Sequence record: DRR723986_2455
Reading direction: 5' to 3' (one strand)
DNA: 64,000 nt
This document shows, piece after piece, positions 41,039 to 64,000 of this stretch (position 1 is its first letter; each line of letters starts with the position of its first letter). A program made the position numbers and the translations under genes. The notes beneath the pieces are model-generated. The model had not been told where the DNA came from and did no database searches. It saw nothing but the letters and a program-made list of their open reading frames with translations.

Positions 41039-41091
41039 TGTTTAGGCACCCAAAATGAAAGAAGTGGCACTTATGTTACAAACCGGCGACA

Positions 41092-41272: not shown

Positions 41273-41317
41273 TCGTCATAGTTTATTCACTGAGTTGTCA
41301 CTTTGCCTGCCTAACAT
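41273..41317 (+). promoter_or_regulatory. PHO box (three half-sites) and -10 element driving lipoprotein/TBDR
   Basis: tcgtcat, tattcac, ttgtcac at 11-bp spacing (41273, 41284, 41295), then 10 nt, then TAACAT. Confidence 0.7.
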
Positions 41318-41373
41318 ACGCCTCAACGACAACAAGCTATGCCCTATTTAAAAGGTTCCGGAGATAAGTTCCC

Positions 41374-43050: not shown

Positions 43051-43084
43051 GCGAACGCAGAGTCTAACGCCAGAGCCGTAAAAC

Positions 43085-43110
43085 AGAGGGCGCCTTACGG
43101 CGCCCTTTCT
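43085..43110 (+). terminator. Intercistronic hairpin between lipoprotein and TBDR
   Basis: agagggcgcc-ttac-ggcgcccttt. Confidence 0.7.
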
Positions 43111-43146
43111 GTTGAAGACAGGTCAAATACGAGTAGGTCTTTACTG

Positions 43147-45855: not shown

Positions 45856-45875
45856 ATAAAGTCAGTAACCTTACT

Positions 45876-45900
45876 AAGGCGCCATTGAGGCGCCTTTTTT
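45876..45900 (+). terminator. Intrinsic terminator after TBDR
   Basis: aaggcgcc-attga-ggcgcctt plus T-run. Confidence 0.85.
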
Positions 45901-45949
45901 ATGCTCGGAATTGCTATACGGTATTAATACGCGACTTGCCGATGCCCGA

Positions 45950-47077: not shown

Positions 47078-47163
47078 TCCAGGGACTTGCCTATACCACT
47101 AAAGGCCGCGTCGGCGGCTGTTACGTTTCACAGTAACGCCGATCGCGGCAGTCAGCAAGACGC

Positions 47164-47484
47164 TTAGTATTGCGAGGCGGGCAGGCGTACTTCCATTCCT
47201 TCTAGGTCGTCGCGCACTTCAATTTGGCAGCTTAAGCGGCTGCCCTCTTCGGGCTCGAGTACGCCGTCGAGAATGCCTTGTTCCATATCATCGGCTGCGG
47301 GCAGTTTGCTGCGCCAGGGTTCGTCAATGTAACAGTGGCAGGTTGCGCAGCTGCACGAGCCGCCGCACTCGGCCAGAATGTCATCGATACCGCCGTCGAG
47401 TGCGGCTTGCATCAGGCTGTGACCGCTCTCGGCCTCGACTTCGCGGGCCTCGCCGTTGTGAGAGATAAAAGTGATTAGCGGCAT
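47164..47484 (-). CDS. 2Fe-2S ferredoxin (putidaredoxin/adrenodoxin type)
   Basis: CGGSCSCATCH and SRLSCQ. Confidence 0.92.
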   Translation of the reverse strand: MPLITFISHNGEAREVEAESGHSLMQAALDGGIDDILAECGGSCSCATCHCYIDEPWRSKLPAADDMEQGILDGVLEPEEGSRLSCQIEVRDDLEGMEVRLPASQY

Positions 47485-47668
47485 AAAACGCTCCAGTGGG
47501 TTATTTGTGTTGTCTGCTGTTGGGGGCAGGTGGCGCAATTTTACCCTCTAGAAGGGGTGATGCCAGTCTTGAATGGAAATGTTGTCAATTGTGATGCTAT
47601 TGGGCGATGTGTGTCGCTTGCTGCATGGCTATATTGCCTGTTGCATAAGCTGGGAGTGGGGGAATACC

Positions 47669-48109
47669 GTGACTAAAGGCAAACACGAGCTAAGCCTGGC
47701 TGACCGACTGGCGCTACATGAACTGCCAGGACGGTACGGCGACGCAGTGGACGATCGGGACTGGGCGCAAATGGATTCAATCTTCACCAAGGACGCAGTA
47801 TTTGAAGTGCGCGGCCTAGTGACGTTGCGAGGTGTTGCAGAGATAAAGCGTTATATGGCGGAGGAGGGGCAGCACCCACTCGCCCACTTGATGTGTAACA
47901 TCCATGCCCGGGAAGACGGTGATGGCGCGCGGCTATTTTTTCGCATTATTGCGCCGGTGCCGCGCGAGGATAAAAGTCGCGATGGCTACTGTATGCACTT
48001 CGGCTCTTATTATGACTGGCTGGTGAAAACCGCCCAGGGTTGGCGGGTGAAGCGCCGAATTTTCTCGGCGAAACGACTAACAGAGTATGAGGAGGCCCGA
48101 AGTGAGTGA
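47669..48109 (+). CDS. SnoaL/NTF2-like protein
   Basis: YGDAVDDRDW..FTKDA..GSYYDWLVKTAQGWR; GTG start. Confidence 0.8.
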   Translation: MTKGKHELSLADRLALHELPGRYGDAVDDRDWAQMDSIFTKDAVFEVRGLVTLRGVAEIKRYMAEEGQHPLAHLMCNIHAREDGDGARLFFRIIAPVPREDKSRDGYCMHFGSYYDWLVKTAQGWRVKRRIFSAKRLTEYEEARSE

Positions 48110-48974
48110 GATAAAAGTAGCGCTGGTCACGGGGGCGAGTCGCGGCGCTGGTGCGGGCATCGCTCGTGCGCTGGGTGCTCACGGTATGACGGTTTATGTT
48201 ACCGGTCGCACCGTTGAGCCCGGCGATGCGAAAGCCTGGGATGGTTCGGTATTGCCCGGCACCGTTGCGGAAACTGCTGCTGCGGTAACGGCTGCGGGTG
48301 GCAAAGGTATTGCCGTGTTATGCGATCACAGTGACGACGAACGCGTGGCCGCGGTGTTTGAACAAATTCGCCGTGAGCAAGGGCGGATTGACCTATTGGT
48401 CAATAACGCGACCTATATGCACCCGCAGCTCATTGAGCAGAAACCCTTCTGGAAAAAAGACATGTCGGCCTGCGAGATACTCAACGTAGGATTGCGCTCG
48501 GCCTATATCGCCAGCTGGCATGCAGCGCAGATGATGGTGGAGCAGGGGCGCGGGCTTATCGCTTTTGGCTCATCATTTGGTGCCTCCTGTTATATGCACG
48601 GCCCCGCCTATGGCGCGCAGAAAGCCGGGCTGGATAAGTTTGCCCACGATATGGCCGTAGACTTGCGCGGTTCGGGAGTGAATACCCTGTCGGTGTGGAT
48701 GGGGCCGCTCAAAACCGAGCGCGCCGCTGTTGCCAGCAAGGTCAACCCAGCGCAATACGAAGCCTTCAGCAAAACTGCCGAGAGCCCGGAGTTTACCGGT
48801 CATATTCTCTATGCCTTGGCCACCAGTAACAAAGCAGAGGCCCTGAGTGGCCATACCTTGATCGGAGCAGAGTTGGCGCGGGAACTTGGCGTAACCGATG
48901 AGGGCAGTGTCCGCCCCTCCTACCGGGAGACTTTAGGCGAGCCGCCGAAACCCAATCCGGTGGTGGTGTATTAA
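48102..48974 (+). CDS. Short-chain dehydrogenase/reductase
   Basis: TGASRGAG, LVNNA, YGAQK. Confidence 0.9.
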   Translation: MSEIKVALVTGASRGAGAGIARALGAHGMTVYVTGRTVEPGDAKAWDGSVLPGTVAETAAAVTAAGGKGIAVLCDHSDDERVAAVFEQIRREQGRIDLLVNNATYMHPQLIEQKPFWKKDMSACEILNVGLRSAYIASWHAAQMMVEQGRGLIAFGSSFGASCYMHGPAYGAQKAGLDKFAHDMAVDLRGSGVNTLSVWMGPLKTERAAVASKVNPAQYEAFSKTAESPEFTGHILYALATSNKAEALSGHTLIGAELARELGVTDEGSVRPSYRETLGEPPKPNPVVVY

Positions 48975-49238
48975 AGCAAAGCTCAAGTTGCCGCTTAATG
49001 GCGAGCACTCTGGTAAGTGGGGCTTTTCGCGGTGAAAAATCCCACTTTCCTGCGGTTGGCTCGCTAAGCCAGCGACAAGCATAGTGGCGCATGCCTATAA
49101 TCCGGCGGCATGTTGCCGTTGCCCACGGTGGATGAGTGGGGGCAGCAACTGTTCAATATGGTATCGACCCAAGCGTCATGGATGAGCTGGCAGGTCTGAT
49201 GACGGGACGCTATAGCAGGCATTACGCAAGTACTTGGG

Positions 49239-50351
49239 ATGCAATCACTATCATTAAGCAACGAGCCAGCGTTGATTCAGCACCTTTACGGTGCCCTGAC
49301 TGATCCGGCGGGTTTTCATCACTTTCTCGAGACGTTGACGCTGTCTATTGGCGGTGAAGCCGCTGAGCTGTTGGTGATTCGCCGCAACCCCCTGCGGGTG
49401 GAGAATGTTTGGTACTACGGCCTTTCTGAGGAGTTGTTGCAGTGGTACATCGGCAGCGACATGATTGCCGTGGATATCGTCATCAATACGGCAATTCGTC
49501 AGGCGCCAGGCGCTTTTCAGACCGCGCTTACCTATGTCGAAGAGACTAACCCCGATGAGGGCTCTGTGCGCTGGGAAGCAGAGCAGGGCATGCTCGATGC
49601 CGCTTGGCTTGTTGTTGAAAGCTCAGCGGATGAATGTGTGCTGCTGACAATTCAAAGAACCGTGGAACAGGGTGCATTTCAGCCGCATGAAATTGGCGCT
49701 CTGAACCGTCTTGCTCCCTATATTCGTCAGGCTGTGGGCCTCAATCGGCAGTTAGCATCGCGTAGCGACGTGTCGTCATCCCTGGCTGCGGTCATCGATG
49801 TATTGCCCGATGCGACGTTAGTGCTGGACAGCTATTCCACGGTGTTGCACTCCAATAAGGCCGCGCGAGCGTTGCTTGATCGCGAGCGCAGCCTGGCGAT
49901 ACGCGATGAGCGCCTGAGCTTTTCAGAGACGGCGCTGCAATCCGCGTTTTTTCTCGCCTCGACACAGGTTGTGCGCGCCAGTATTGGTCGCGAGGGGCAT
50001 TACACCGAGACCTTATTCTTAAAACGTGCCGGTCGTCAGCCGCTGATATTTGTATTGCGGCCGATAGAGAGCAGCGAGTTATTGGCGGGCGGAGCGCTGC
50101 TTACCATTTATGAGCCCGGTCACCGGCAGTTGCCAAATGCCGAGCAAATTGCCGGCTATTTTGAACTTACGGTGGCGGAGTCACAGGTGTGCGAGCACTT
50201 GGTAGCGGGCATGGATTTGCAAGCTATTGCCGACCACTTGGGGCGCAAGATAAGCACTGTGCGTTACCAGTTAAAGCAGGTTTTTCAGAAGACGGCATGC
50301 ACCCGGCAGGGAGAGTTGGTGAGCAGTATTTTAGCGGCGCTATTGCGATAG
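49239..50351 (+). CDS. LuxR-type HTH transcriptional regulator with PAS-like domain
   Basis: C-terminal LTVAESQV..STVRYQLKQVFQKT..RQGELV. Confidence 0.85.
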   Translation: MQSLSLSNEPALIQHLYGALTDPAGFHHFLETLTLSIGGEAAELLVIRRNPLRVENVWYYGLSEELLQWYIGSDMIAVDIVINTAIRQAPGAFQTALTYVEETNPDEGSVRWEAEQGMLDAAWLVVESSADECVLLTIQRTVEQGAFQPHEIGALNRLAPYIRQAVGLNRQLASRSDVSSSLAAVIDVLPDATLVLDSYSTVLHSNKAARALLDRERSLAIRDERLSFSETALQSAFFLASTQVVRASIGREGHYTETLFLKRAGRQPLIFVLRPIESSELLAGGALLTIYEPGHRQLPNAEQIAGYFELTVAESQVCEHLVAGMDLQAIADHLGRKISTVRYQLKQVFQKTACTRQGELVSSILAALLR

Positions 50352-50403
50352 TGCCTGTTGCAATGGGTGTCTGCGGGCAGTTTATGCCCGCAGGAGATTG
50401 AGC

Positions 50404-52053
50404 TTATTTTGCGACGACCTCTCCGACCAGCTCGCTGATAAAAAAGGCACTTTCATGGGACGTGGTGCCGTCCTTATGCGAAAAGCTAATCAGCGCCATT
50501 TCACGTCCGCGGCTGTCTTTGATGGGTGCAAAGAGCCAATAGCCTGTTGAGTCGTCGTCCATGGTTTCATAGTAATCGAGACTGCCCGCCGCATTGACCT
50601 TCCAGCTGTGTTCGATCGTGCTTGATTCATCGGGGCCAAAATCCACCCTGCCTGAGCCGTTTTCGTAGAGCCTAACCGAAATTTTATCGGCCTCATCTGG
50701 GAAGGCGTATGTAAAGGCTTTGCTCTGGTTCTCGACAAACAGGCGCTCTGCGCTGCGCTCAACGGTAGCGGTTTTTCTATAGATGGCGCTGCCGTTGTCA
50801 TCTTCTACTCGCAATTTTACCGTGAAGCGGCCCACGCGCATGAAGCTGAATGCATCCTCGGCGTCGCTTTCGCAGTTGAAATCACCCCATTTAGTGGTGG
50901 TGCATACATCGTCACCGTCGGATAAGCCGCCGTCTCCGTCGGTTTCTGAAACGATGTCGGTCACGCTGAACTGTTTGCCATCAATGCTGTAATTTCCCCA
51001 TTCTGAGGTAGGTGCGTCAGCGGGGAGGGAGGCGTCACCCTCGTCGCGATAGCTGTGGGCAACGTTGTAGCTGCCATCCTCAAGTACCGTAAGAACGTGG
51101 AATTCGTCTGCCTGATCTTCAATCAGCCAGCTACCTACAAAAGCATTGCTGCTACTTTTGACGCTTTTAAACGCTGCGGCGGCATCCGCCTCGCTACCAA
51201 AATGTAGTTCATCGTTAACTAAGTGAACCGTTTCCTGGCCGCAGCCTTCGCCTAGCGTTTCACAAAAACCGCCATCGGTGTTGGACTGTGCCTGGGCGCT
51301 GAACGTGATTACACCATCGGCAGGGTTCCACTCGTAGTAGCCCCACTCTGCGGTGGCGGTACCCTGGTCATCGTTGCCGTATTTGTGACTGACAATGTAG
51401 CGATTCCCGCTCAGGAAAGTCAGTACGCTGACTTCTTCGCCATTTGGCCCTTTACCGTTACTGCTCTCGCCCGCCGGCTCGACAAATAACCAGCTGCCGC
51501 GCAGGTCGGCCTGTTGTGAACGGCCAAAATGGGCTTCGGCCTTGTCCGCGCTGACTAAGCTTTTGCCGGTGGGGGTCGCAACTTCGGTGTCGAATTGCGT
51601 TTCAAACTCTGACTGCGGTAAGCCGAGATTGAGCTGTGCATCGGCAAGAAGTCCGTGAATCTCGCCGTCAATGGTAATGCCATTGTCAGCATTGCCGTCA
51701 TCGTCCAGTGACTGCAGCAAGCGCAGAATATTGTTGACCTGGTTGGGCGTGCTGCCGTCCATGTCGGCTGGGGTGACTCGGCCGCTGGCGGGAACCTCGG
51801 GCAGTGTGATTCCACCAATACTGAAGGTGACGCTATCGCCCTCAACAAATTCGTACTCACCCAGCTCAGTCGTGCTGCCTGATTGGCCGCTGGGCGCGGT
51901 TTAATAGCGGATGCCGGCAACGGCGCTGTCGGTGAAAATGCCTCGCTGAACCTCCGGCTCGGAACTATTGCTTCCGCCAGACGAGGAACCACCGCCACCA
52001 CAGGCGGTGAGTGTAAAGGCCAGGGCGAGCGGCCCCCAATAAGCTGATTTCAT
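50404..52053 (-). pseudogene. Acidic surface lipoprotein gene interrupted by one in-frame TAA (codon 51)
   Basis: ggaga RBS, MKSAYWGPLALAFTLTAC lipobox, ...VAGIRY*TAPSGQSG..., continuing in frame into the 452-aa ORF; stop at 51901-51903. Confidence 0.8.
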
Positions 52054-52263
52054 GGTATCTCCGATTTTTGTACCGAATGTCTAAAGTCGCTAGAGGACCA
52101 TAGAGCCAGGTACAGCTCATCTCCCAAATTGGGTATGCGTTACTGGGTGGCGGCGGGAATCGGTAATATTTCTATAATTACCGGGAGCGCGCCTTACTGT
52201 TTGCCTGTTTGGGGGTGGACGTAAGTGAAATGGTGGGGCATAAAAAAAGGCCTTCGCTGTGTC

Positions 52264-52406
52264 TGTAGGTAACTTCATTAATTGTCGCCTGCTTTTCATC
52301 AAAAGTTGCCACTTTCGCCGTAATTTCCGGTTCTTTGCGATGGTTATCTTCACTATTGACGACCATATTTCAGAATAAGTTGTCAGTGTTTTTATCATAA
52401 GGTGGA
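52264..52406 (+). repeat. Putative transposon end with TnsB-binding repeats
   Basis: TGTAGGTAAC then ttcattaattgtcgcc (52274), ttcatcaaaagttgcc (52295), ttcagaataagttgtc (52369), tttatcataaggtgga (52391). Confidence 0.7.
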
Positions 52407-52531
52407 AAATTAAAACCTTTTAAAAACAATTGGTTGGGGTTTTTGTTGCAGTTATTAGGGTTGGTTTTGCTCTAACAATCCTGTGTGCACAGCGGTATAT
52501 TGAGCTAGCTCGGCGCCAAATGGAGGAGAAT

Positions 52532-52729
52532 ATGAGCACCCCGTCCCGTGAAGGAGCATCTCCTGGAGAGCTCTTTGTCGACGCGCGGCCAGTCCCGGCT
52601 AGTTCGAACACAGAATATGACCTACGTGAGCTTATTGGCCCACAAGAGACGATTTCCAAGTGCTATGACCGCAACGCTGAGGATAAGCAATGGCTCAATG
52701 ACCTGCCTGTAGGTTTGGAAGCACTGTAA
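52532..52729 (+). CDS. Small protein resembling the C-terminal part of PemI/MazE-type antitoxins
   Basis: ggagga RBS; YDLRELI...EDKQWLNDLPVGLEAL; no AbrB N-domain, no toxin ORF after it. Confidence 0.5.
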   Translation: MSTPSREGASPGELFVDARPVPASSNTEYDLRELIGPQETISKCYDRNAEDKQWLNDLPVGLEAL

Positions 52730-53013
52730 TTATCATGGCTATTTGCATTCTGAGGTTGGAAATGACGCATTGGCGATGCGTTTGAGTTCCGCCTCTTTTG
52801 CGCAGAAGATCGTTGAAATAAAATTCATAGGCGTCTCAAATGACACTTAGCGGACGCCCATAACACCGAAGTCGACGGCGGTATATAAATGAGCGGGCAA
52901 GTCGGTTACCTTCGTGCATAAGGCGCGTTTTGGCGCAATTTCTATTTAGTTGATCATTAAACCCCGTCTTTTAAGGCTCACGCTTTGCCTTAAAATGCGC
53001 AGTTTACCTGAGG

Positions 53014-53038
53014 AAAAGAGGGCGGCACTCCGCCCCCT
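53014..53038 (-). terminator. Intrinsic terminator after the Cys-rich protein gene
   Basis: Minus strand agggggcgg-agtg-ccgccctct-ttt. Confidence 0.7.
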
Positions 53039-53040
53039 AC

Positions 53041-54342
53041 CTACCACTTGAAGCCGGGCAGAATCGATTCGGCTGCTTTGCGAAGATCGTTATTCTTGCC
53101 CGGGCCATGGGTCAGATCATTGGCCGCGTTGCGGAAGGTCTTCACTACGTCATTGTTTTTGCCCGGGCCCTGAGTTAAGTCATTGGCCGCATTGCGGAAG
53201 GTTTTCACGACGTCGTTGTTAGGGCCAAAGTGGCGGGCAAATTCATTGCTCAGATTGTCCAGTGCCTTAACAATATCGTTGTTCGGCCCAAAGCAACCAT
53301 TTTTGCCGCCCACACCGTGAGTGAAGCACTTGCTCAGTTCTCGGCTGGTAAGGCGACCACCGGTACAGGTAACAAAGGCCGTCGGCTCCCCCCCCGAACC
53401 CATCGCACACTCCATTGCAATTTGCTGCTCTGGCGTCAGGTCCAGCGACCCCATGCCATAGCAGACTGCCGTGCCGTATACTGAAATATCGCCTTGCTCG
53501 GATTCCTGCTGCATGCAATTGACCAGGCGGGCCTGATCTTCACTGAAAGAATCCTGCGCCATGCACAAGGGATACGCCTTGTAGTTTTTTCCGTGCTGAA
53601 GATAGCAGTCACTGACCTTGGCGATGTCTCGCTGCTCCTGACTACCGCCAAGCGCGGCCAGCGTGCACAGCGCCATCTTGCCATCGTCATCCTTGGCCTC
53701 CCGGGCACATTTATAAAAGGCCCGTTCTTTTTGCCCCAGCATTTCATTAATCATACACTGTTTGAACTTGTCGTTCTGCAGCTTGCCGTTTTTCGCTCGT
53801 GAATTATTGGCACACGACAGGGCCTCACTCTCGCGGACCAACCGCGGGGCCGTGATACTAGCGCCGGGCTGTTCAAACCGTCTGGGAATGTAGCGCGTCG
53901 TCGATGTCAAAGTTTCAGCGCCCCGGACGAAACTACCGCCTCGCGGCAAAGGCCGATACGCATGCAGCCACGGATTCGGCGGTGGGTACCCCGGGTTAAA
54001 CTTGCACTGCCCAATCTGATTCGCCCCCTGATACATATTGACGGCCACCATCGCGCCCGCCCAGTCAATGAAGTAGCCGTTGTTCGGATCGATGCTCGAG
54101 AGCTGGATATACATCATCCCTGAGGGGTCACGCCGCATGGGATTGAAGACCGGTCCAAAACCCTGTCTCTGACGAAAAAAGGTGGTTTTTTCCGATACGT
54201 AGGTCCCATTGGTCATCAAAGCTAGGCGGTCAGGCCCGCTACTATCCGCATAAGAACAGGATCCGATTTGTGGTAGCTGCGCCTGGGTAGCGGCTGATAA
54301 CACTAAAAGCATTAACGATAGCAACATCGATGGTAAGCGCAT
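53041..54342 (-). CDS. Secreted Cys-rich repeat protein
   Basis: Signal peptide; regularly spaced Cys pairs; C-terminal 21-aa repeats. Confidence 0.8.
   Translation of the reverse strand: MRLPSMLLSLMLLVLSAATQAQLPQIGSCSYADSSGPDRLALMTNGTYVSEKTTFFRQRQGFGPVFNPMRRDPSGMMYIQLSSIDPNNGYFIDWAGAMVAVNMYQGANQIGQCKFNPGYPPPNPWLHAYRPLPRGGSFVRGAETLTSTTRYIPRRFEQPGASITAPRLVRESEALSCANNSRAKNGKLQNDKFKQCMINEMLGQKERAFYKCAREAKDDDGKMALCTLAALGGSQEQRDIAKVSDCYLQHGKNYKAYPLCMAQDSFSEDQARLVNCMQQESEQGDISVYGTAVCYGMGSLDLTPEQQIAMECAMGSGGEPTAFVTCTGGRLTSRELSKCFTHGVGGKNGCFGPNNDIVKALDNLSNEFARHFGPNNDVVKTFRNAANDLTQGPGKNNDVVKTFRNAANDLTHGPGKNNDLRKAAESILPGFKW
53086..53288 (-). repeat. 63-bp coding tandem repeat (G[P/K]NND..K units)
   Basis: gcccgggcc at 53098 and 53161; NNDVVKTFRNAANDLT occurs twice. 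Confidence 0.85.
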
Positions 54343-54390
54343 TTTCTTCCCCTTGTCTTTGCTTCGTTATGAGCGGCCCCTCAGCAGAGC

Positions 54391-54933
54391 CTAGCGAACC
54401 GTCACGGTAATGGCGATGAGTTTGGATTGGTTACCGCCGAGCGCCGCGGCTTGCGATGACATTTCACCGGCAATATCAGACAACGCGGCCTTAGACTGGG
54501 TTACCATACAGACGGAACCGTTATGGCTGACGTCCTTGCCAACGAGAATGCAGCCCTGAGTTTGGCGTGGATAGTTGCCAACATGGAGTTGCACCAACTT
54601 TCGATCGGGCACGCCCTCGAGCTGAATTCGCCAGCCCTTCTTACCATCGCGGCGAATCCACGCAGGATAGGTACCTTGCGGGATCCGGCTGATGGCAGTT
54701 TCATTGTTCTTCCATGGCAGCTCAAGCGATCGCCCGACCTCTTTGTCGTTGACCAGTATTCGCCCTATCGTGCTGTTGTCCGCGCAAGTCATATTGCGCT
54801 CAATCACTAGGTTGAAAACCGCATCCTGCTTTGATGCCAATAGATCACTGAGTTTGTCGTCTGCTTGCGACAGATACGGTAGCGAATACAAGGCGAATAA
54901 GAGTGAGGCAAGGAAGTGGCGTGTTCTCAGCAT
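54391..54933 (-). CDS. DUF5675 family secreted protein (L,D-transpeptidase-like motif)
   Basis: Signal peptide; TIGRI..SLELPW..SRIPQGTY..VPDR..LHVGN....QGCILVG. Confidence 0.75.
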   Translation of the reverse strand: MLRTRHFLASLLFALYSLPYLSQADDKLSDLLASKQDAVFNLVIERNMTCADNSTIGRILVNDKEVGRSLELPWKNNETAISRIPQGTYPAWIRRDGKKGWRIQLEGVPDRKLVQLHVGNYPRQTQGCILVGKDVSHNGSVCMVTQSKAALSDIAGEMSSQAAALGGNQSKLIAITVTVR

Positions 54934-55584
54934 GCTGGCCCCTGACAAGTTAGTTTCGAAGGGAGAATTGTCTATTCCCACTATCGCGAGAACGTTTGTG
55001 GAAGGTAAGTAAATATCCCTGTTTGAGGAATTCGGGGTAGCTGACAAGATTAGTCCCTTTCCCGAAAATAGTTACTACGTTTAGGTAGTAAAAACTATAT
55101 ATTTCAATGGGTTGTGTTTCGGTTGGCGGTGTTAGCACGACACTGTCCCTTTATTACATTGAAATTCCCTTGCTCTTGATCATATACCGGCCAATTGAGA
55201 AATCAATAATTTAACGCCAGCATAACGGTATAAGCCTAAGACTACTGAAAAAGGCTAAAACGCCGCGGTTATTGGAAAGTTTTGATTGCTCCAAGCATCT
55301 GGTAATGTGGCGCAGCGCTCGTAACGCACAACGAATCTAAACATTCTGACTGTCCGTTTATTGCCAACAGCCGACCTTCATACAAATATGACAATAGTCC
55401 AATCCTGTCGAAAATAGGGCGTTGACTGTAATCCAGCTATTTCCGGGTTTTGGTTGTGATTGGGTATGAATAGAATTTCAACCCTAGTCTGCAATTAGGC
55501 CTTATTATTGAATTAGCCCTCTTTGATTCATTTGGTTATAGTTTTTTGTCTTGGGTCCTTTTGGTGAGGGCTATTACTCATTTG

Positions 55585-55614
55585 CAGGGGCATCGACGTT
55601 AATCAATGCCCCTG
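55585..55614 (-). terminator. Hairpin downstream of the 325-aa gene
   Basis: caggggcat...atgcccctg inverted repeat. Confidence 0.55.
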
Positions 55615-55621
55615 ATGTCGA

Positions 55622-56599
55622 TCAAGCCTTTGGGTTTTGCATCGCCAATGTATAGCCGTACCAGCTCTCGAAGTCGCCGTCGAAGCTCCCATTGCAAGCT
55701 TGGTCTTTTACCATAGTCAAAAAGGATCGACGCTCCTTCTCTGAAGAGAGATTCAGAGCAGGCTCAACATGATTGGCAGTGACAATAAAACCAGCGCCAT
55801 TAGCCTCGCAACAGTAGAGTCCCGTGTCCTCAATATCACTTACGGCCACCACTAATGCATTGTATTCCTCTGGGCCATCAGGGTCTGCCAGTTCCAAGAA
55901 AAGGGCTAAATCCTTCGTGAAAAGGGGTTCTGGGTCAGACCAATCAGTATCCCTCTGACCCGACACTGATATACCCGTACATGAAAGTCCTCGCTTTCCG
56001 GCTTGGTGGGCAAGTGTTACTGCCGCCTCGAAATTGATCTGGTGTCCGGAGTAGACTCTATCTGGATGAGGCGTGCCTGAAAGACATCCAGTGGTAGAAA
56101 CTACGGTCTCAGATTTACCTATCAATACCCTCGGGTCTGATTCGTAGTCCGGAAACATAGGAAAATCTGCATTTGTCATAGCAATCTCGCCTGACAGTTC
56201 GTCCTCAATCTCCGAATTTCGCTCAATCAGAAGGTGCTCAATAATAAAATCACCAATGTCGTCATAGTAGTGGACTTCACCGCGAAGCAAGTCCTCGCTC
56301 TCAAGCCGTTCCACTAGGTAATTAGCAAGAGCTCGTGAATCGGGAAGGTCAGAAGGCAGATCTTTCAGGCCAGCTCTTCGAGCATCCATAAGTTGTAAAT
56401 CTGGCAAGAAAAATTCAGCGCTTGAGAGGTTGTTAATAGAGGGCCGTGTATCTGCAAGATTGGCAGCATGGCTTTTGTAGCCAAACATTGCTGCGACTAG
56501 CTCTCTCGCATGGCTGGCTTTTAACTTATTTCCAGGAGCCTGTTGCGCATAAAGTTGGCGCAAGGAATCTGAACAAGATTTAGACACATCTGTAGACAT
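55622..56599 (-). CDS. Hypothetical protein with KLKASHARELVAAMFGY N-terminal helical domain
   Basis: ggaga RBS; 325-aa ORF; N-terminus resembles the small Glyoxalase_8-like domain seen in mobile elements. Confidence 0.7.
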   Translation of the reverse strand: MSTDVSKSCSDSLRQLYAQQAPGNKLKASHARELVAAMFGYKSHAANLADTRPSINNLSSAEFFLPDLQLMDARRAGLKDLPSDLPDSRALANYLVERLESEDLLRGEVHYYDDIGDFIIEHLLIERNSEIEDELSGEIAMTNADFPMFPDYESDPRVLIGKSETVVSTTGCLSGTPHPDRVYSGHQINFEAAVTLAHQAGKRGLSCTGISVSGQRDTDWSDPEPLFTKDLALFLELADPDGPEEYNALVVAVSDIEDTGLYCCEANGAGFIVTANHVEPALNLSSEKERRSFLTMVKDQACNGSFDGDFESWYGYTLAMQNPKA

Positions 56600-57049
56600 A
56601 GGATCATCTCCAAACCAACGCTGGACTAGACGTGTAGCAGTGGGCGTTTAAACACTACACCTGCCAGCGAATTGGCAAAGGTGATGTCCTTCGTAGAGGT
56701 ATTTCCGCTGTCTTTTTGGCCGCACACAACCATGGCAATCAGCTCCTGTTTTAAGCATACGGATTGCTGGGGGTTTTGCAAGCGTAGGGAAACTCCCAAG
56801 CGGGGCATCTTGCCTACGGTATCAGTGCGAAAGAGGAGAGCAGCTTAATTTGCGTGACTCCTTTTCATCGCGACAAAGTGGGTAACTGGTCGCCCTAAAA
56901 AAACGGCAGGTAGGAGATCGTTGTCCTGGAGCTGGCTCGCCGGGTTGATCGTTTGCATGGCCTTTGGCCAAAGGGGGAGGCTTTCCATTCACTGTTTATT
57001 GGGAGTAAAGTGGGTCTAGAGTTCTTGCAGGCAGGGAAAGGATAATAGT

Positions 57050-57400
57050 GTGAAGGAATACAACCCAAACTCGTTTCTAGGGTCAGGCTACAAAAATTTA
57101 GACCTAAAATATATTTTTGACCACCTTCGGAATATAGGGATCGCAGCTGCAATTTTAATAGCAGGGGTCAACCTTGATCCGGATATGCTGAATAAAACAT
57201 TTCCGAATATCAATCTTAGTCCTGGGTGGTTTTCAATGGGACTTGTCTTCTTGTCACTGGTACTGCTGAGCCTCAATTTTGCACAGCTGCTGTATATATC
57301 CGCTAAGAAAGGCACGAGGATGTCGGCTTCAATTTCCGCATTCCTGTCGCTGCCATTATATTTTCTAACTGCGCTGATCTATATGGCATACGTTTCTTGA
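57050..57400 (+). CDS. Small hypothetical membrane protein (about 3 TM)
   Basis: Three hydrophobic stretches in a 116-aa ORF. Confidence 0.6.
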   Translation: MKEYNPNSFLGSGYKNLDLKYIFDHLRNIGIAAAILIAGVNLDPDMLNKTFPNINLSPGWFSMGLVFLSLVLLSLNFAQLLYISAKKGTRMSASISAFLSLPLYFLTALIYMAYVS

Positions 57401-57468
57401 ACTGGCATTTCCATGTGATCTGGGATTTCAAAGCATTAATATAGCTGGTCGAGCGAAACGAGGGCTGT

Positions 57469-57672
57469 GTGATGGAGTCGGAACGATACAAAGTAATGCT
57501 TAAGGCTGCCACGCATCTCATGGACGGCGATGAGGAGGCTGCAAAGCAATGGCTGGCTAGTCCACAGGATCTTTTTAGTGGTGCGGCCCCAGAAGTCCAT
57601 GGGGAAAGTGATGTGGGCCTGCAGGAAGTGCTCCAATTAATAGGAAGATTGGAGCACGGAGTGTTCTCATGA
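57469..57672 (+). CDS. Xre/MbcA/ParS antitoxin C-terminal domain (DUF2384) only
   Basis: GDEEAAKQWLASP..G.AP..VLQLIGRLEHGVFS signature; no HTH, no RES toxin. Confidence 0.8.
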   Translation: MMESERYKVMLKAATHLMDGDEEAAKQWLASPQDLFSGAAPEVHGESDVGLQEVLQLIGRLEHGVFS

Positions 57673-57739
57673 GTTGAAGGCCGTGGCTAGTTGCTGTTAG
57701 TCCTCTTTCTCGGTCTTTGCGCTTGGTGCCAAAGAGTGT

Positions 57740-58165
57740 TCAGGTTCCTGGCTTCATATAATTTCTGGCCTCAAATATCACCCTGCTGATACTGCCTCCG
57801 CTAATAATATGTTCAGCAGGTGATTTTCCGTCTATTCCTTCGGACAGAAAAAATATTATGGCTGATTCTTGGTCATTCTTGTCTGGAAATGCGGAGATAA
57901 TATCCGGTAAATGCGCTTGAATTGTCGAAATAAACTGAAATTTTGGTAAGCGGTATTCAGTGCCGTGAAGCTGGTAAACGAGAAGTCCGTTCTGCTTAAT
58001 TTTCCTTATGATTTCCGCCGGAGATAGCGACAACTCACCGGCGGCCTCTTCCATCGATAATGCGCCGCCATTGTTCTGTACAAGAGTGTGAAATCTGTCA
58101 GTGCCTGTCATCAAAGCGGAGCTGATTAAATCGTCACAGTCGCCTTTTCTGTCCCTCATATCCAT
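57740..58165 (-). CDS. HTH protein resembling MbcA-like antitoxins
   Basis: LSMEEAAGEL HTH, YRLPKFQF, FFLS..IDGKSPAEHI. Confidence 0.55.
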   Translation of the reverse strand: MDMRDRKGDCDDLISSALMTGTDRFHTLVQNNGGALSMEEAAGELSLSPAEIIRKIKQNGLLVYQLHGTEYRLPKFQFISTIQAHLPDIISAFPDKNDQESAIIFFLSEGIDGKSPAEHIISGGSISRVIFEARNYMKPGT

Positions 58166-58301
58166 TTTTTTCCATTGTGCAATGGCCTACTGTGTAGCAG
58201 GGCTCTCACATTCACTAAAAATGACTCGACCCGTGAAGATATAACCGCTGGACATCAAGGTTTGGCGGCGCTAATCCGCACAATTATCGCAGCGGAATTG
58301 T

Positions 58302-58506
58302 TGTTTTCAGAAGCTATTTGAAAATCATGTCACAAAATAAATAACAAGAAAATGACTAAAGTAAATCGATAAATTTAAAGAACGTAGTCATGTCATAAGT
58401 CTTAAAGTTACTTTATAAAAATATCACACAGTTTGTATCTATATGTTTTTAAAAGATATTTGTTGAATGTGCTGATTTTCTTCTATATGTTTTAGAAAAT
58501 TATTTG
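58302..58506 (+). repeat. Three 19-bp direct repeats TGTTTTnnnAAnnTATTTG
   Basis: Copies at 58302, 58444 and 58488 in the AT-rich region upstream of the regulator/tns operon. Confidence 0.55.
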
Positions 58507-58519
58507 AAATTTTTTTCCT

Positions 58520-58765
58520 ATGGCTAATAGAGAGCGGATTAAGCAGGCATTTAGCGATAGCAACCTGTCAATTGCCGAATGGTCTCGGGAGAGGGGCTTT
58601 AGTGAAAGTTTGGTCTATCAGGTGCTGGCGGCGAAAAAGCTCCCGAAGCGGGGGCAAAGCTACGAAATAGCCGTGGCTTTGGGGTTAGTTGACCCATCTC
58701 GGGCGAGTGTGTCCGGGAAAGTGGCCGAGTTCGAAAGAAAAATTAAGGAGGGGCTTAGCGCGTAG
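58520..58765 (+). CDS. Phage-associated DNA-binding protein, BcepMu gp16 / Ner-like
   Basis: SIAEWSRERGFSESLVYQVL...RGQSYEIAVALGL. Confidence 0.8.
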   Translation: MANRERIKQAFSDSNLSIAEWSRERGFSESLVYQVLAAKKLPKRGQSYEIAVALGLVDPSRASVSGKVAEFERKIKEGLSA

Positions 58766-58931
58766 ATAAAGAAAAACCCGAAAAACTTGCGCTTTCCGGG
58801 CTTCCCGTGAGGTAGATACCTCGATCTAATCAATCTCAGTATCTCTCCTCGTTCGAAACCTGTCAAGCGTCCTATTCCCTGAATCAATGATTTGGGTCGA
58901 GCCCTCTTGGCCCAAAAAAGAGGACCATGTG

Positions 58932-61529
58932 ATGAATTCTATTAGAGCGGTGATCGAACAACCAAAAATGGCCGGCAAAATAACACCAGCAGGCCGTGCT
59001 TACATTGAGCGAGTGGCTAGAAATCCGCCCTCTCGAGCTGTCGGCGGAGGTATGTACAACAATGTAGTTTACTTCCCGTCTCGTAAGATGGGGTACGCGC
59101 TACATCTAGAAAGCTCTACCTTGGAATTAGCCTTCGCTATCTGGTGCGAGATACAACTTTCGGTACAGCGGTACTACACGCAACCGGAGCCGAGGCGGAT
59201 AAGGTACCAGTCTGCGTCGGGGCGTGTAGTCGGAAGTATGGTAACGCATGACTTCCTCGTCATTGGGGATGATGGCGTACAGTTCGTTGAGTGCAAGCCA
59301 AGTAGCGTGCTTGAGAAAAAACGCAAGAAGAATCCAACTAGGTATTTTGTTGATGAAGAGGGTCAATGGCAATGTGCAGCGTCAAAGCAGGACGCATCCA
59401 CGCTCGGCTTTGAGCATCGCATCGTAACTGAAAAATCTCTTAGCCAGAAATTGGTTCGTAACGCCGATATTTTAAAATCGCATGTTTTGCATATGGACTA
59501 TGCATTCGAGCCCGCAAGCCAGGCGCGAGATAATGTAGGTATACCCCCCAGCATAGAAATTATGACCCTTTTCGAATTATATGAGCAAGTGGGTCAGGAT
59601 GTAGCCTTGCAAGGAATTCTTGCTGGCCGTTGGTTTGTTGATCTCGAAAATTCGTTGCTTATTCACCCAGAGAGAGTGTGGGTATATTTCAATAAAAATA
59701 AAATGTTAATTCAAAGAAAGTTATCGGATTGCCGACGAATAATTGTAGAGAATATTTACGATCTCGAGAGCGCCAGGACGGTTTTTTGGGATGGCAATTC
59801 CTGGGACATTGTGAATTTTAATGTCACGTCTAAGGCTATCACGCTTTGCTCATCATCGTCTGTTCTTCGTTTAGAGGGTGACGAATTGGAAAAGCTAATT
59901 GCAAAGCGGGCGTTTTCAAAGTCCAGCCCTTCTTCTCAAGCCGTCATTAATGAAAAGCTAATCCATGCAAAAGACGCTGACATAGAAGAGATGTTGCGGC
60001 GTGCAGAGATGGTAAATGGGAAAAATAGTTCTGCTTCAGTAAGAACCGTCCAACGCTACAAACGATCTTTCTTCGAGGCGGAGGAGGATTTTGGTAATGG
60101 CCTAGTTGGTTTGTTGCCGCGTCATCCTGCGAAGGGGAATCGTACGCGTCGGCTTTGCGACGATACCGAAGCATTGATGAAGAAGATTATTGAAAAAAAA
60201 TATCTGAAGAAAAACGGTGGCTCTGTGCGCAATTCGTACATATTGTACCTTGCTATCGCGCGGCGGATGAATCTTCAGGAAGTCACTTACAATACTTTCC
60301 ACTCGCGGGTAACGAAAATCTGTCAGAGAAGGCGGGTATCCCTTCGTGAGGGTGTAAAGGCTGCCTACCAGATGGCGCCCGCCGGTCGTTTGGAAATTGA
60401 AGAATCGCGGCCGCCCGACGGAGACTTCGCATTCCAGATTGCTCACATCGACTCCACGCCAATTGAGCTTTCAATGGTGTCATCGATTAACGGTAAAGCT
60501 ATAGGGAGTCTATGGCTGACCGTGATGGTTGATGCGTACTCTCGACATCCGCTCGCCTTCACCCTTTCTCCCCACAAGCCGTCTTTCCGCACGATAATGG
60601 AATTAATTATGAAGTGCTCGAAGCGTTGGTCGAGATTGCCGCTTACATTGGTGGTCGATCAAGGTTCTGAGCATAAAAATACATACCTGCAACAACTTTG
60701 TGCGTCTCTTGAGATAACTCTCTTCTACAGGGCTGCATCTGCAGCGCGAGTTGGGGCGCCGGTTGAGCGCCTGTTCGGTACTTCTCAGCAGCAGCTCATT
60801 CATCAGCTTGAGGGAAATAGAAAAAACATAAAAATGGGACGTGGAAAATCGCCATCACACGATCCACAAAAGCAAGCGTTGTGGTCGCCTACAGAATTTT
60901 CTCGGGTATTGGAGCATTGGGCCTTTTATGTTTACCCCGGATTGACACATTCCACAACAGCTGAATCTCCTGCAGAAAGGCTGGCCAGGTCAGATGGAAA
61001 ATTTCACAGGAAGCCAGGGGTGCCAGCAACATGGAACGAGGACTTTGAATTTCTCCTGTTACCGTCACCAAAAACTGGTCCAAGGACGATCACGGTGCGT
61101 GGGGTTACGATGTATGGCATTTCCTACCAGTTTACCCGGCCTGTCAATCCAGAGCGTTTGCCCAAAGAAAAAGTATTGATGAAATATAACCCCTTCAATC
61201 TTTCTTATTGTTATGTGCAAATCAATGGATTTTGGGAGCGGCTTGTCACCAATAATCCGATTGTACGCGAGTTTATAGAGGTCGGCTTTCCGCCGACAGA
61301 AATGGAAATTATTCCCTTGTTGAGAAAGCAAAAATCAGAATACGCATCTGTTCAAGATATTCAGATTGAATTTGTTTCAGAAGTCGAGGATTTTGAGCGG
61401 GAAATTTCAAAAGGCCAAGCGGTCTTGGAACACGCCAATAAGCATCGTGACGAGGTTCCATGCCGAAGAAACCTGCACGCTCCACGTCCAATCGACACGA
61501 ACAGCCTGCCGCTAGCTGACGAGCTATAG
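58932..61529 (+). CDS. tnsAB: Fused TnsA-TnsB transposase
   Basis: N-terminal TnsA nuclease (PSRKMG..ES..E..YYTQP..DFLV..VECK); DDE core (HIDST, VVDQGSE, VERLFGT); single frame; gagga RBS before ATG 58932. Confidence 0.88.
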   Translation: MNSIRAVIEQPKMAGKITPAGRAYIERVARNPPSRAVGGGMYNNVVYFPSRKMGYALHLESSTLELAFAIWCEIQLSVQRYYTQPEPRRIRYQSASGRVVGSMVTHDFLVIGDDGVQFVECKPSSVLEKKRKKNPTRYFVDEEGQWQCAASKQDASTLGFEHRIVTEKSLSQKLVRNADILKSHVLHMDYAFEPASQARDNVGIPPSIEIMTLFELYEQVGQDVALQGILAGRWFVDLENSLLIHPERVWVYFNKNKMLIQRKLSDCRRIIVENIYDLESARTVFWDGNSWDIVNFNVTSKAITLCSSSSVLRLEGDELEKLIAKRAFSKSSPSSQAVINEKLIHAKDADIEEMLRRAEMVNGKNSSASVRTVQRYKRSFFEAEEDFGNGLVGLLPRHPAKGNRTRRLCDDTEALMKKIIEKKYLKKNGGSVRNSYILYLAIARRMNLQEVTYNTFHSRVTKICQRRRVSLREGVKAAYQMAPAGRLEIEESRPPDGDFAFQIAHIDSTPIELSMVSSINGKAIGSLWLTVMVDAYSRHPLAFTLSPHKPSFRTIMELIMKCSKRWSRLPLTLVVDQGSEHKNTYLQQLCASLEITLFYRAASAARVGAPVERLFGTSQQQLIHQLEGNRKNIKMGRGKSPSHDPQKQALWSPTEFSRVLEHWAFYVYPGLTHSTTAESPAERLARSDGKFHRKPGVPATWNEDFEFLLLPSPKTGPRTITVRGVTMYGISYQFTRPVNPERLPKEKVLMKYNPFNLSYCYVQINGFWERLVTNNPIVREFIEVGFPPTEMEIIPLLRKQKSEYASVQDIQIEFVSEVEDFEREISKGQAVLEHANKHRDEVPCRRNLHAPRPIDTNSLPLADEL

Positions 61530-61547
61530 ATTCTAGAGGACATCAAT

Positions 61548-62627
61548 ATGATTTCTCAAAAAACACTTATCGATATTGATAAATACCATTTCGATCACGA
61601 CCATTTGATCCGGGCTCGTTGGGAGCTGTCTTGTCAGATACAGTGTGGCTTGCAGCACCAATTTGCGCTAATTCTTGGCCCCTCTGGCGTGGGCAAAACG
61701 AGTTTGCTGAACTATTTCGCGAAGAAGCTAACTGAGTACAGGATGGCTCCGGAGTTCACGGAGAGAAAGTCACCTCCAATCCTGCTAAACGCTCCAGCCC
61801 GCGTGCGCGGCTCCTTTCAATGGAAGCCGTTCCTCACTGATCTTATATCCAAGCTTGGAGCCGATATGGGTGCCATTTACGACTTGGACAGACATGTCAG
61901 TGATCTGACGTTGTATGCGGCCAAGCAAGTGAGGGTTGGGTTTAAGAAGCCGCAGGTCGAAACTTTGCATGATTTAGCAGCCAGCTTGATAGACGCGCAA
62001 AAGCCATTGGCAATATTCATCGATGAAGGTCAGCACTTTAGTAATTCTGGGACTGACGATCAGCGACGTGAAGACGTCGACCGACTTAAGACATGCGTTA
62101 ATGATTTTAACACTAAGTTGGTTCTGGCTGGGACCTACGAGGGAATGGGGTTAATTGACTATAGTGAGCAAGTCGCAAGGCGAAACTCGCTGATAGAATT
62201 TCCTCGCTATGGCAAATCTGATGTTGAGCTTAAAGCTTATGCCCAATGGTATGTTTCAGTCTGCAAAAAGGTGGGGATAGATGTGCGCTTGCCGCCGCTC
62301 AATGACCCTGAATACGTACAGCACTATACCCTAGGTGTGCCTGGAATATTCACAAGCTGGCTTCAAGACGCGGTAAGCAATAGTCTGATGTGCGAGAAGA
62401 GTTCTGTTACAGAAAAAGCTTTAATTAGCACAAGACCCCATCCCAGGAAGTTAAAAGTCGCGTACGATAAAATCAGCCAGTATGAGCAGTATAACAATAT
62501 CAGCTTCGATCAACTCTGTGACTTTGATCTTATCCCTTCTCCCGGTGAGGCTAGCGATGGGGTGTCTCGGAAGAGGTCAAAGCCTGGTCGGCGTCTCCCA
62601 ACACGAGATCCGATAGGGCGTAGTTAA
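61548..62627 (+). CDS. tnsC: TnsC AAA+ ATPase
   Basis: Walker A GPSGVGKT, Walker B IFIDEGQH, QVARR arginine finger. Confidence 0.88.
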   Translation: MISQKTLIDIDKYHFDHDHLIRARWELSCQIQCGLQHQFALILGPSGVGKTSLLNYFAKKLTEYRMAPEFTERKSPPILLNAPARVRGSFQWKPFLTDLISKLGADMGAIYDLDRHVSDLTLYAAKQVRVGFKKPQVETLHDLAASLIDAQKPLAIFIDEGQHFSNSGTDDQRREDVDRLKTCVNDFNTKLVLAGTYEGMGLIDYSEQVARRNSLIEFPRYGKSDVELKAYAQWYVSVCKKVGIDVRLPPLNDPEYVQHYTLGVPGIFTSWLQDAVSNSLMCEKSSVTEKALISTRPHPRKLKVAYDKISQYEQYNNISFDQLCDFDLIPSPGEASDGVSRKRSKPGRRLPTRDPIGRS

Positions 62628-62630
62628 TCG

Positions 62631-63929
62631 ATGTCGCTCTATGCAAAGTATGGGTTCGTTTTTTGCGAACCCATAATTGAACCGGGTAGCGACGTTGAGC
62701 TAATGTCTAGCTACTTGTCCAGGTGTGCAAATGTCAATTTCACCAGCACTTCACATCTTATTGCATCATTGGAAAAAGCAATGGTGCATCGACGAGCGCG
62801 TGGAAAGAAATCAAAACGTTCACAGGGTGATATGTACAATGTAAATGGAATTGGCCCGCTTGCCAACGATGCTGTAGACGCGTTAGCTGGTGTCGAAGAC
62901 CTGAATATAGATTTTAGAAATTTGACTTTAATCAAGTGGAGGCCATGGGTCGATTTCCGATTGCATGGAGTACTTCGGCCTAACAGGATGTGGTGTGCTC
63001 AATGCTGGGCTGAAGATATTGACCGAGGGATTGACCCTTATATACGACTTCTCTGGTCACTTCATTCTGTCACTGCCTGCTACAAACACAAATGTTTTTT
63101 GGAAGATCGTTGCCCGAAGTGCGATTCCTTGCAGGACATCGTTACTTCGTTTCCGCGACAATGGTATTGCTTTAGGTGTGGAAACGACCTCCTATCAGAT
63201 GGGCAGGATATGAAGGGCGCCGGCGACGAGGCTATGTGGAAATCCCGAGGTATCGCAAGTCTAATTGATGCGGCTATCTGTGATGAAAACCGCCTTAGTC
63301 TGCAAAACCTTGGGAAGAATTTGCTATTTGTTGCGGATAATGTGTTGGACGGGGATATGACTGAGCTGGGTGAGGTGTGTGGCAACGATCTTCTCGAGGA
63401 GGGATTTTACTCTAGCTACAAAAGACTTCATTTTCAGCGAATTGTGGATGTCGCTTATCGGTTGCAGATCAGTCCCGATCAGCTATTGGGGCCAAATTTT
63501 GTAATAACTACGCCACATGAATGGAGGCCGGCAGCGTCGCGTACCAAGTACCGAAAATCTCCAAGAAAAATCGATACCGTCTTGATAAGAGAGAATATCA
63601 ACAAGTGCCTGAGCGCCCCCGAAGCTATAAGCCTGAAAAATTTTTGTAAAGACAATGACATGTATCCCGAGGTATTTCGAGGCCATTTTCCAAAGTCTGC
63701 GGAATTGATTCAACAGCGATATTCACGTAAGAAGAAATTTCAGCGGCTTTTCTCGCGTCTTCAACGGGCGGGGAAAATATACCAGGCATCATTTGACATG
63801 ATTTCTCAAGGGAGCTGCCCAAGTGAGCGCAGCTTGAGAGAGAAAACCGATCTTAAAGCCAGTGATTTTCGGCGAGATGACGTAAAACGGCTTATCGCGC
63901 AGATACAGGAAAAGTTCGGGAAGGCTTGA
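62631..63929 (+). CDS. tniQ: TniQ/TnsD target selector
   Basis: E.MSSYLSR.A..N, WCAQCW, CYKH..LEDRCPKC, CFRC zinc motifs; extended C-terminus. Confidence 0.88.
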   Translation: MSLYAKYGFVFCEPIIEPGSDVELMSSYLSRCANVNFTSTSHLIASLEKAMVHRRARGKKSKRSQGDMYNVNGIGPLANDAVDALAGVEDLNIDFRNLTLIKWRPWVDFRLHGVLRPNRMWCAQCWAEDIDRGIDPYIRLLWSLHSVTACYKHKCFLEDRCPKCDSLQDIVTSFPRQWYCFRCGNDLLSDGQDMKGAGDEAMWKSRGIASLIDAAICDENRLSLQNLGKNLLFVADNVLDGDMTELGEVCGNDLLEEGFYSSYKRLHFQRIVDVAYRLQISPDQLLGPNFVITTPHEWRPAASRTKYRKSPRKIDTVLIRENINKCLSAPEAISLKNFCKDNDMYPEVFRGHFPKSAELIQQRYSRKKKFQRLFSRLQRAGKIYQASFDMISQGSCPSERSLREKTDLKASDFRRDDVKRLIAQIQEKFGKA

Positions 63930-64000
63930 CTGGGTAAAGGCTGGTGAGAAGTCAGGTGTAGTGATAAGCCATGACAGAGCCTAGGCTAAAAAATAATATA

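Follow-up and report, generated by a model that had tools for sequence, protein, structure and literature searches.

A likely Tn7-like transposon of the fused-TnsAB lineage downstream of a tRNA-Leu gene in a marine gammaproteobacterium

The window analysed here is a stretch of 64,000 nt from sequence record DRR723986_2455. We conclude that the DNA from position 52260 to beyond 64000 is probably one Tn7-like transposon of the lineage in which TnsA and TnsB are fused, inserted downstream of the tRNA-Leu(CAG) gene of its host, a marine gammaproteobacterium of Cellvibrionales-like affinity. Its three core genes, tnsAB, tnsC and tniQ, are apparently intact and lie in the region 58520–63929, which an earlier note on this DNA had singled out; protein families, cas genes and CRISPR arrays were scanned for over 50000–64000. 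The element extends known biology by a divergent member and is no new kind of system. The features that carry this reading are as follows.

58932–61529, plus strand: tnsAB, a predicted natural fusion of 865 aa (the frame is open from 58887, 880 codons to 61529).
Within TnsAB: predicted TnsA catalytic and C-terminal domains at residues ~16–345, TnsB DNA-binding region at ~380–500, DDE core at 522–627, then a Mu-transposase-like C-terminal part.
61548–62627, plus strand: tnsC, a predicted 359-aa AAA+ ATPase with Walker A at G44 and Walker B at I156.
62631–63929, plus strand: tniQ/tnsD, 432 aa, with a TniQ domain and three CxxC motifs at residues 122, 161 and 180.
63930–64000, plus strand: DNA from tniQ to the window edge; a further gene may start with the ATG at 63971.
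52260–52480, plus strand: transposon end on the tns-upstream, tRNA-distal side, starting 5'-TGTC; the inner limit is approximate.
52255–52259, no strand: the five host bases that immediately precede the transposon end; should they recur at the other junction, they would be the expected 5-bp target-site duplication.

The likely start of tnsAB is M16 of the open frame, at 58932. A GAGGA motif lies 7 nt upstream, the N-termini of relatives coincide with M16, and an independent public copy with 94% identity over its full length is called at exactly 865 aa. We therefore place the start at 58932, giving a protein of 865 aa, and the single uninterrupted frame of that length described in the earlier note stands.

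The second half of this protein is predicted to be a TnsB-type DDE transposase, and the N-terminal part a TnsA-type PD-(D/E)xK endonuclease. Using phmmer against the PDB, residues 31–789 align to the natural TnsAB fusion 9bw1 chain M (E = 3e-95), and residues 384–780 also align with the TnsB chains of PseCAST, Tn6677 and ShCAST type. The window protein was then aligned with its 27 nearest library relatives. In this alignment, E80, D122 and K137 in the first half and D522, D591 and E627 in the second, the latter with spacings of 69 and 36 residues, are each invariant in 28 of 28 sequences. By analogy with Tn7 TnsA and TnsB, we take these to be the catalytic residues of the nuclease and the transposase. 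Among the 28 proteins Pfam detects rve in 27, Mu-transpos_C in 24, Tn7_TnsA-like_N (PF08722) in 17 and TnsA_C in 3; the window protein matches rve alone and is absent from the 17. An AlphaFold2 model of residues 16–345, built from a 36-row alignment, has a mean predicted local distance difference test score (pLDDT) of 89.8. Searched with Foldseek, this model finds no more than four PDB chains at E ≤ 0.001: 9bw1_M (5.5e-21; 30% identity over 268 aligned columns) and the Tn7 TnsA chains 1t0f_B, 1t0f_A and 1f1z_A. The 9bw1 match, the invariant residues and the fold model all agree with the earlier description of a TnsA nuclease joined to an intact TnsB DDE triad.

Could the fusion be an error of assembly? 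The TnsA-TnsB linker, 59882–60129, is spanned without a gap by a contig of a different study (X2 record 14). The all-against-all library search returned 3307 proteins at E ≤ 0.001, of which 803 also pass E ≤ 1e-30; among the 150 top-ranked relatives, 139 are at least 800 aa long, and most align from about residue 31. The linker-spanning contig and the lengths of these relatives show that the fusion is no assembly artefact, a doubt the earlier note had itself raised. The public copy mentioned above (P0160, from ENA) is identical to the window protein at 809 of 865 positions, with 56 substitutions, no gap and no stop, and keeps all six catalytic residues. Together with the gap-free contig and the relatives' lengths, it indicates that the TnsA-TnsB fusion is old and widespread. 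Within that family the window protein stands apart: it is a singleton in 50% clustering, and its best non-self relative is 35% identical.

The two genes that follow fit the same picture, in the order TnsC and then a 432-aa TniQ that had been proposed for them. TnsC matches Pfam AAA_22 (1.5e-11) and TniB (3.8e-10); its top PDB match is the TnsC of 8fcu/9bw1 (E = 2.8e-18), with an alignment that reaches the shared C-terminal RDPIG. TniQ matches the Pfam TniQ domain (1.7e-12). Its residues 23–405 align to the 462-aa TnsD of PmcCAST (8v32_J/9bw1; E = 2e-23 against the PDB), including the C-terminal region, whereas the match to the 329-aa Cascade-associated TniQ 8fcu_P has an E value of 3.2e-11. 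Because the TnsD match is the better of the two, we assign the window TniQ to the TnsD-type selectors, and the comparison supports an element that would be guided by a protein selector.

Inserted DNA begins at 52260, as shown by two empty sites. A metagenome contig about 96.5% identical to the window (X1 record 2) covers 51438–52259. Its next letters, after 52259, make up a hairpin's second arm, followed by a T-run and by TGGTG, which is complementary to the 3' end of the tRNA; the distance to the tRNA is 25 nt. In a genome of the same genus (G910), the flank is 93% identical up to 52263, with the final bases matching letter for letter up to 52259; 26 nt past the flank lies tRNA-Leu(CAG), its 3' end toward the junction. 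The same transposon end is also found at a different flank: in X2 record 9, 52264–52448 is preceded by 43 unrelated letters. The nearest genome (G001) is 97% identical to window 40000–52238, loses synteny near 52238 and lacks the tns region. It carries tRNA-Leu(CAG) 2.2 kb past the break, on the minus strand with the 3' end toward the break. Between the same flank and this tRNA is a lower-GC insert of its own (L006 1091–3310) with three minus-strand open reading frames (ORFs; 342, 114 and 101 aa). A different insert at the same tRNA-Leu(CAG) marks the site as a recurrent insertion hotspot in the genus. The tRNA stands beside the same neighbour gene in 20 of 25 related loci scanned. The protein of this neighbour gene in G001 is 71–75% identical to those of Zhongshania and Spongiibacter, in keeping with the gammaproteobacterial host named earlier, and the best 80 tRNA-Leu loci are labelled gammaproteobacterial or unresolved in 79 cases, the other being a metagenome-assembled genome labelled Sphingobacterium.

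No tRNA or tmRNA is present in the window, so the tRNA-Leu(CAG) of this host must lie past 64000. No inverted counterpart of the 52260 end was found in 52000–64000, including 63930–64000, and with the ATG at 63971 this indicates that the element continues past the window. Starting at 52260 and passing 64000, it is at least 11.7 kb long. The earlier note had called it compact and begun it at 58520; both descriptions have to be given up. The GC content is 0.48 in 52260–58519, 0.47 in 58520–64000 and 0.56 in the remaining window.

The 25–26 nt of the empty sites plus a 5-bp duplication give an expected spacing of 30–31 bp between the tRNA and the tRNA-proximal end. The tns genes run in the direction of the expected tRNA, unlike in Tn7, where the tns-proximal end points toward the target. 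We infer that the element inserted about 30 bp downstream of tRNA-Leu(CAG), with the tns-distal end nearest the tRNA. The protein-guided, site-specific insertion suggested in the earlier note finds support in both the kinship of TniQ to tRNA-targeting TnsD and the junction 25–26 nt from the tRNA. We call the 52260 end 'right', following the Peters convention in which this is the end upstream of the tns genes (excerpt of PMC11406308).

A tRNA gene next to a mobile element raises the question whether the DNA is instead an integrase-type genomic island at tRNA-Leu, with the Tn7-like module as a passenger inside it. We consider this very unlikely. tRNA genes are classic integrase targets, G001 carries another 2.2-kb insert at the same locus, and two proteins listed below, a 141-aa protein with a weak excisionase-family helix-turn-helix (HTH) match (E = 0.002) and a DUF5675 protein that matches a phage family, would suit such an island. 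However, the junction lies 25–26 nt beyond the tRNA and not within it, fragments of the tRNA-Leu gene are not repeated in the window, and no integrase was found in 52260–64000. The boundary, moreover, begins with TGT, and its spacing is that of TnsD-guided relatives.

The roughly 6 kb between the 52260 end and tnsAB would be cargo of the same transposon. Such a stretch of genes without an annotated function is unusual at this place; with Pfam, NCBIfam, PHROGs, PADLOC and the PDB, DUF5675 is the sole family match among the putative cargo. The region contains the following features.

52532–52729, plus strand: 65-aa ORF with GGAGGAG upstream; no family match.
53041–54342, minus strand: 433-aa ORF; no Pfam, PHROG, PADLOC, NCBIfam or PDB match.
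54391–55047, minus strand: 218-aa DUF5675 protein, putative cargo (Pfam DUF5675, 8.6e-26; phrog_1501, 2.4e-20).
55622–56599, minus strand: 325-aa ORF, putative cargo; no family match; pieces are present in X1 and X2 contigs.
57740–58165, minus strand: 141-aa protein with a weak excisionase-type HTH (TIGR01764, E = 0.002, below cut-off), divergent from the HTH-tnsAB operon.
58302–58320, 58444–58462 and 58488–58506, plus strand: three direct copies of a 19-nt motif, intergenic, upstream of the 81-aa HTH gene.
52410–52428, minus strand: a fourth, inverted copy of the 19-nt motif, with 3 mismatches to the pattern.
58520–58765, plus strand: 81-aa HTH protein, a putative regulator, directly upstream of tnsAB (BcepMu gp16 family TIGR04111, 4.2e-19; phrog_925, 5e-14).

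Within the 433-aa ORF, a 63-nt tandem repeat at 53087–53248 (about 2 copies, 73–85% matches) encodes a 21-residue unit near the C-terminus. At 52737–52766, 30 nt are 100% identical to a same-genus genome (G1007, C1:3991176–3991205), where the rest of the element is absent. The 141-aa protein has no Pfam match and no significant PDB match. In 57740–58765, divergent HTH genes surround the repeat-bearing intergenic region, upstream of a Mu-like transposase and AAA+ pair, a layout that recalls the repressor/ner/A/B region of phage Mu. We set aside the name 'Ner-like' for the 81-aa protein: it has no sequence match in the PDB, and the name would come from the NCBIfam BcepMu gp16 family alone. The 19-nt motif has 4 matches where 0.19 would be expected by chance per window, and three of the four defined the pattern; given that chance expectation, the inverted copy at 52410–52428 is weak by itself. 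The repeats may be operators or internal transposase-binding sites.

These repeats also bear on whether one or two elements are present. An older, decayed and transposase-less element could occupy 52260 to about 58295, adjoined by a younger autonomous one whose end lies at about 58296–58302 (TGTTGTTTT...). The three direct repeats start at 58302 with TGT, about 600 bp upstream of tnsAB, which is a more usual distance; X2 pieces are 94–97% identical in 52264–56816 versus 99–100% in the tns genes; and stacking at attachment sites is a known behaviour of Tn7-like elements. On the other hand, the DNA before 58299 lacks both an ...ACA terminus and the flank pentamer CGCTG in direct orientation, the pentamer being present there, by eye, as its reverse complement alone (58290–58294). 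The missing inverted copy of the 52260 end, already noted for the whole of 52000–64000, speaks against a remnant as well, and a contig (X1 record 5) runs unbroken over 57928–58434. A second insertion would normally be blocked by target immunity (excerpt of PMC11014353). We therefore regard two adjoining elements as unlikely and retain a single transposon starting at 52260. A related candidate, in which the element would end at 58296 and the DNA to the left would be the tRNA-side flank, was rejected: the window holds no tRNA or tmRNA and no fragment of the G001 tRNA-Leu region, a 12-nt match at 58189–58200 is at chance level, and local alignment to that region is no better than to shuffled sequence.

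The family is sparsely distributed. At a homolog threshold of E ≤ 1e-30, matches were found in 1 of 401 genomes of the same class, 0 of 401 of the same phylum and 4 of 401 of the same order (the three samples overlap), one of the last being near full length with an open frame of 874 aa. Inside the order sample, 0 of 11 genomes of the same genus and 0 of 13 of the same family have a homolog, and relatives of TnsAB, TnsC and TniQ are absent from 80 related tRNA-Leu loci. The nearest relatives are at most 35% identical. The description as an uncharacterised member holds, and the sole named close relative is a protein of Sessilibacter corallicola (Cellvibrionaceae; WP_353302576.1, P0017). On plasmids, 43 records cover at least 80% of TnsAB; among the 25 listed, 23 are cyanobacterial and 2 are from Bacillus cereus, at 27.7–30.1% identity, and two plasmid matches (H1 and H24) have TnsAB and TnsC without TniQ. 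As a lead only, a protein atlas holds clusters of look-alikes of 900–945 aa annotated 'commonest Pseudomonadota'.

Close variants do circulate. Besides the 94% TnsAB copy, a TniQ variant with 97% identity exists in public data, and short contigs that are 97.5–100% identical over the tns module come from four metagenome runs in four studies; in these contigs, the identity of cargo and end pieces falls to 94%. Each run covers a small share of the stretch (0.05–0.17), and none of the X1–X4 contigs lies on 52802–55603. Scans of public genome and metagenome contig collections found no further copies of the locus. The variants and the contigs from four studies support recent mobility.

It could still be that the identification is right and the element is now a fossil. 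In a near-identical copy from JGI, the gene calls for both TnsAB (763 aa) and TniQ (239 aa) are shorter at the N-terminus, and the family's absence from the same-genus genomes and the related tRNA-Leu loci shows how rare it is. Yet the three frames in the window are open and every catalytic residue is kept, the 94% variant has accumulated 56 substitutions over 865 aa without a gap or a stop, and X2 has this end next to another flank. We give immobility little probability; the transposon may well be active today.

Several observations weigh against a single, intact transposon at tRNA-Leu(CAG). Since the element leaves the window at 64000, its tRNA-proximal end, the target duplication and the tRNA itself are all outside view, and the junction on the tRNA side is extrapolated from empty sites. 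At 52260–52480 the search for transposase-binding repeats gave no convincing array; imperfect TGTC-containing repeats at ~52283 and ~52380 were seen there by eye only. The distance from the 52260 end to tnsAB is about 6.7 kb, versus 205 bp in the Allocoleopsis element described below, and the three-fold repeat at 58302–58506 could mark a second, internal end. A search for TnsA_N, rve and TniQ domains, the check proposed in the earlier note, fails if taken at face value: Pfam gave no TnsA domain on the window protein itself. In the same search rve scored 31.7 bits, just under the cut-off of 32.6, and TniQ was recovered. The shorter JGI calls indicate that some copies may be broken or badly assembled. 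Low-depth X1 contigs leave the window at 58513 and 60213 and run into unrelated AT-rich letters (139 and 255); these loose ends may be variant elements that share the control region, or assembly branch points. X1 and the window may also stem from one sample.

By homology with PmcCAST and McCAST, we propose the following mechanism. The TnsD-like TniQ would bind the tRNA-Leu gene's 3' part, and a TnsC ring would assemble on the adjoining DNA and recruit TnsAB bound at both element ends. Cutting and joining of the 3' ends would fall to the TnsB DDE site, cleavage of the 5' strands to the fused TnsA nuclease, and cut-and-paste transposition would result. Insertion would then occur about 30 bp past the tRNA, with the tns-distal end adjoining it.

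Might the element also have an RNA-guided pathway? No cas family was found among the ORFs scanned in 50000–64000, and no CRISPR array or Rfam family in the same interval. We think it quite unlikely that the stretch past 64000, from tniQ to the tRNA, holds another TniQ as a second target selector, alone or together with a nuclease-dead CRISPR-Cas module. If it did, this would be the first fused-TnsAB member of dual-pathway or CRISPR-associated transposon (CAST) type outside cyanobacteria, and one with an unusual control region, a divergent HTH pair and three 19-nt repeats before the transposase gene.

The fused-TnsAB lineage is the source of the transposition machinery of type I-B2 and I-D CASTs, and in the literature searched it comes mainly from cyanobacteria and lately from archaea. 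What is new here is a divergent three-protein member (TnsAB, TnsC and TnsD) in a gammaproteobacterium. As its target would be a proteobacterial tRNA-Leu(CAG), the element may serve, unadapted, as a compact system for site-specific integration in laboratory proteobacteria.

Comparing the window with Tn7, Tn6022 and type I-F3 CASTs shows the same functions (TnsA, TnsB, TnsC and TniQ/TnsD), TGT ends, and site- and orientation-specific insertion. Those systems, in contrast, make TnsA and TnsB as two proteins, Tn7 has a larger TnsC, and Tn7 TnsB (7pik) is only a weak match to the family profile of the window protein (E = 3.3e-14). The earlier note had set cyanobacterial fusions against separate genes in Gammaproteobacteria. 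The cyanobacterial kinship holds. The exclusivity does not, given the Sessilibacter protein, the 4 of 401 same-order genomes, sporadic natural fusions among I-F3 CASTs (excerpt of PMC11406308), and archaeal fused tnsAB genes adjoining tRNA genes (excerpt of bioRxiv 10.1101/2025.07.27.667033).

The closest gammaproteobacterial counterparts, the S. corallicola protein and a complete genome of the same order (G1096), encode fused proteins of 871–874 aa that are 33–35% identical to the window TnsAB. In G1096 (L093 13639–18719), a 35%-identical 871-aa tnsAB is followed by a 364-aa ORF of TnsC size and a 463-aa ORF of TniQ size. No tRNA lies within about 20 kb of this copy, so its target is probably another one, or distant.

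An element on the Allocoleopsis plasmid NC_019740.1 (L101) has both ends in view. One end, TGTC, is 205 bp upstream of tnsAB; the other, ...GACA, comes after tniQ. The two are bracketed by a CCTTC duplication, and past the tns-distal end stands the CRISPR repeat that is targeted. It shares with the window element the TGTC terminus, the order tnsAB-tnsC-tniQ and the position of the target; it differs in being compact (about 5.1 kb, no cargo) and in targeting CRISPR repeats instead of a tRNA. The two have the same orientation, so the window fits the orientation rule of the clade, in agreement with excerpts of PMC11837452 and PMC9881144, in which the 'left' end abuts the target. The Allocoleopsis element (L101 6434–6704 and 11857–12041) sits inside a CRISPR array beside type III-B cas genes. 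There is a resemblance between the 3' part of its CRISPR repeat (GGATGGAAAC) and the complementary strand of the tRNA T-arm (GGACTTGAACC) beside the window's site in G910.

The type I-D McCAST and the cyanobacterial tRNA-targeting fused-TnsAB elements share with the window element attachment at tRNA-Leu, a spacing of ~29–31 bp and a tns-distal end adjoining the target (excerpts of PMC9881144 and PMC11837452). The spacings given in parts of the individual reports are 29 ± 1 bp for McCAST (PMC9881144), 31 bp for RoCAST (bioRxiv 10.1101/2021.10.18.464778) and 30–33 nt for CyCAST (PMC10293859). The TnsA aspartate mutated in McCAST (D106A; excerpt of PMC9881144) occupies the same position as D107 of the 865-aa window protein. 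According to the same excerpt, the cyanobacterial fused elements are more than 50% identical among themselves, whereas the named cyanobacterial plasmid homologs, among the matches listed, reach the window TnsAB at just 27.7–30.1%. That the tRNA-Leu site and the ~30-bp spacing are kept at no more than 35% identity suggests that the lineage's reading of tRNA genes is old and transferable between phyla.

For all three proteins, the best solved relatives are those of the PmcCAST transpososome 9bw1, titled 'TnsABCD-DNA transpososome' in Foldseek and, according to excerpts of PMC11915506 and PMC11837452, belonging to the type I-B2 CAST of the Peltigera membranacea cyanobiont. This supports the placement, made in the earlier note, among the fused-TnsAB relatives of types I-B2 and I-D. 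The window element differs from PmcCAST in having no second TniQ, cas genes or CRISPR array in 50000–64000, in its gammaproteobacterial host, in the ~6 kb of genes between the tns-upstream end and tnsAB, and in its distant sequence identity. Both have a natural TnsA-TnsB fusion, a short TnsC of ~360–380 aa and a TnsD-type TniQ (9bw1/8v32); PmcCAST homes downstream of a tRNA gene, as the window element probably does. For structure-function studies of 9bw1, the window element provides a distant point of comparison.

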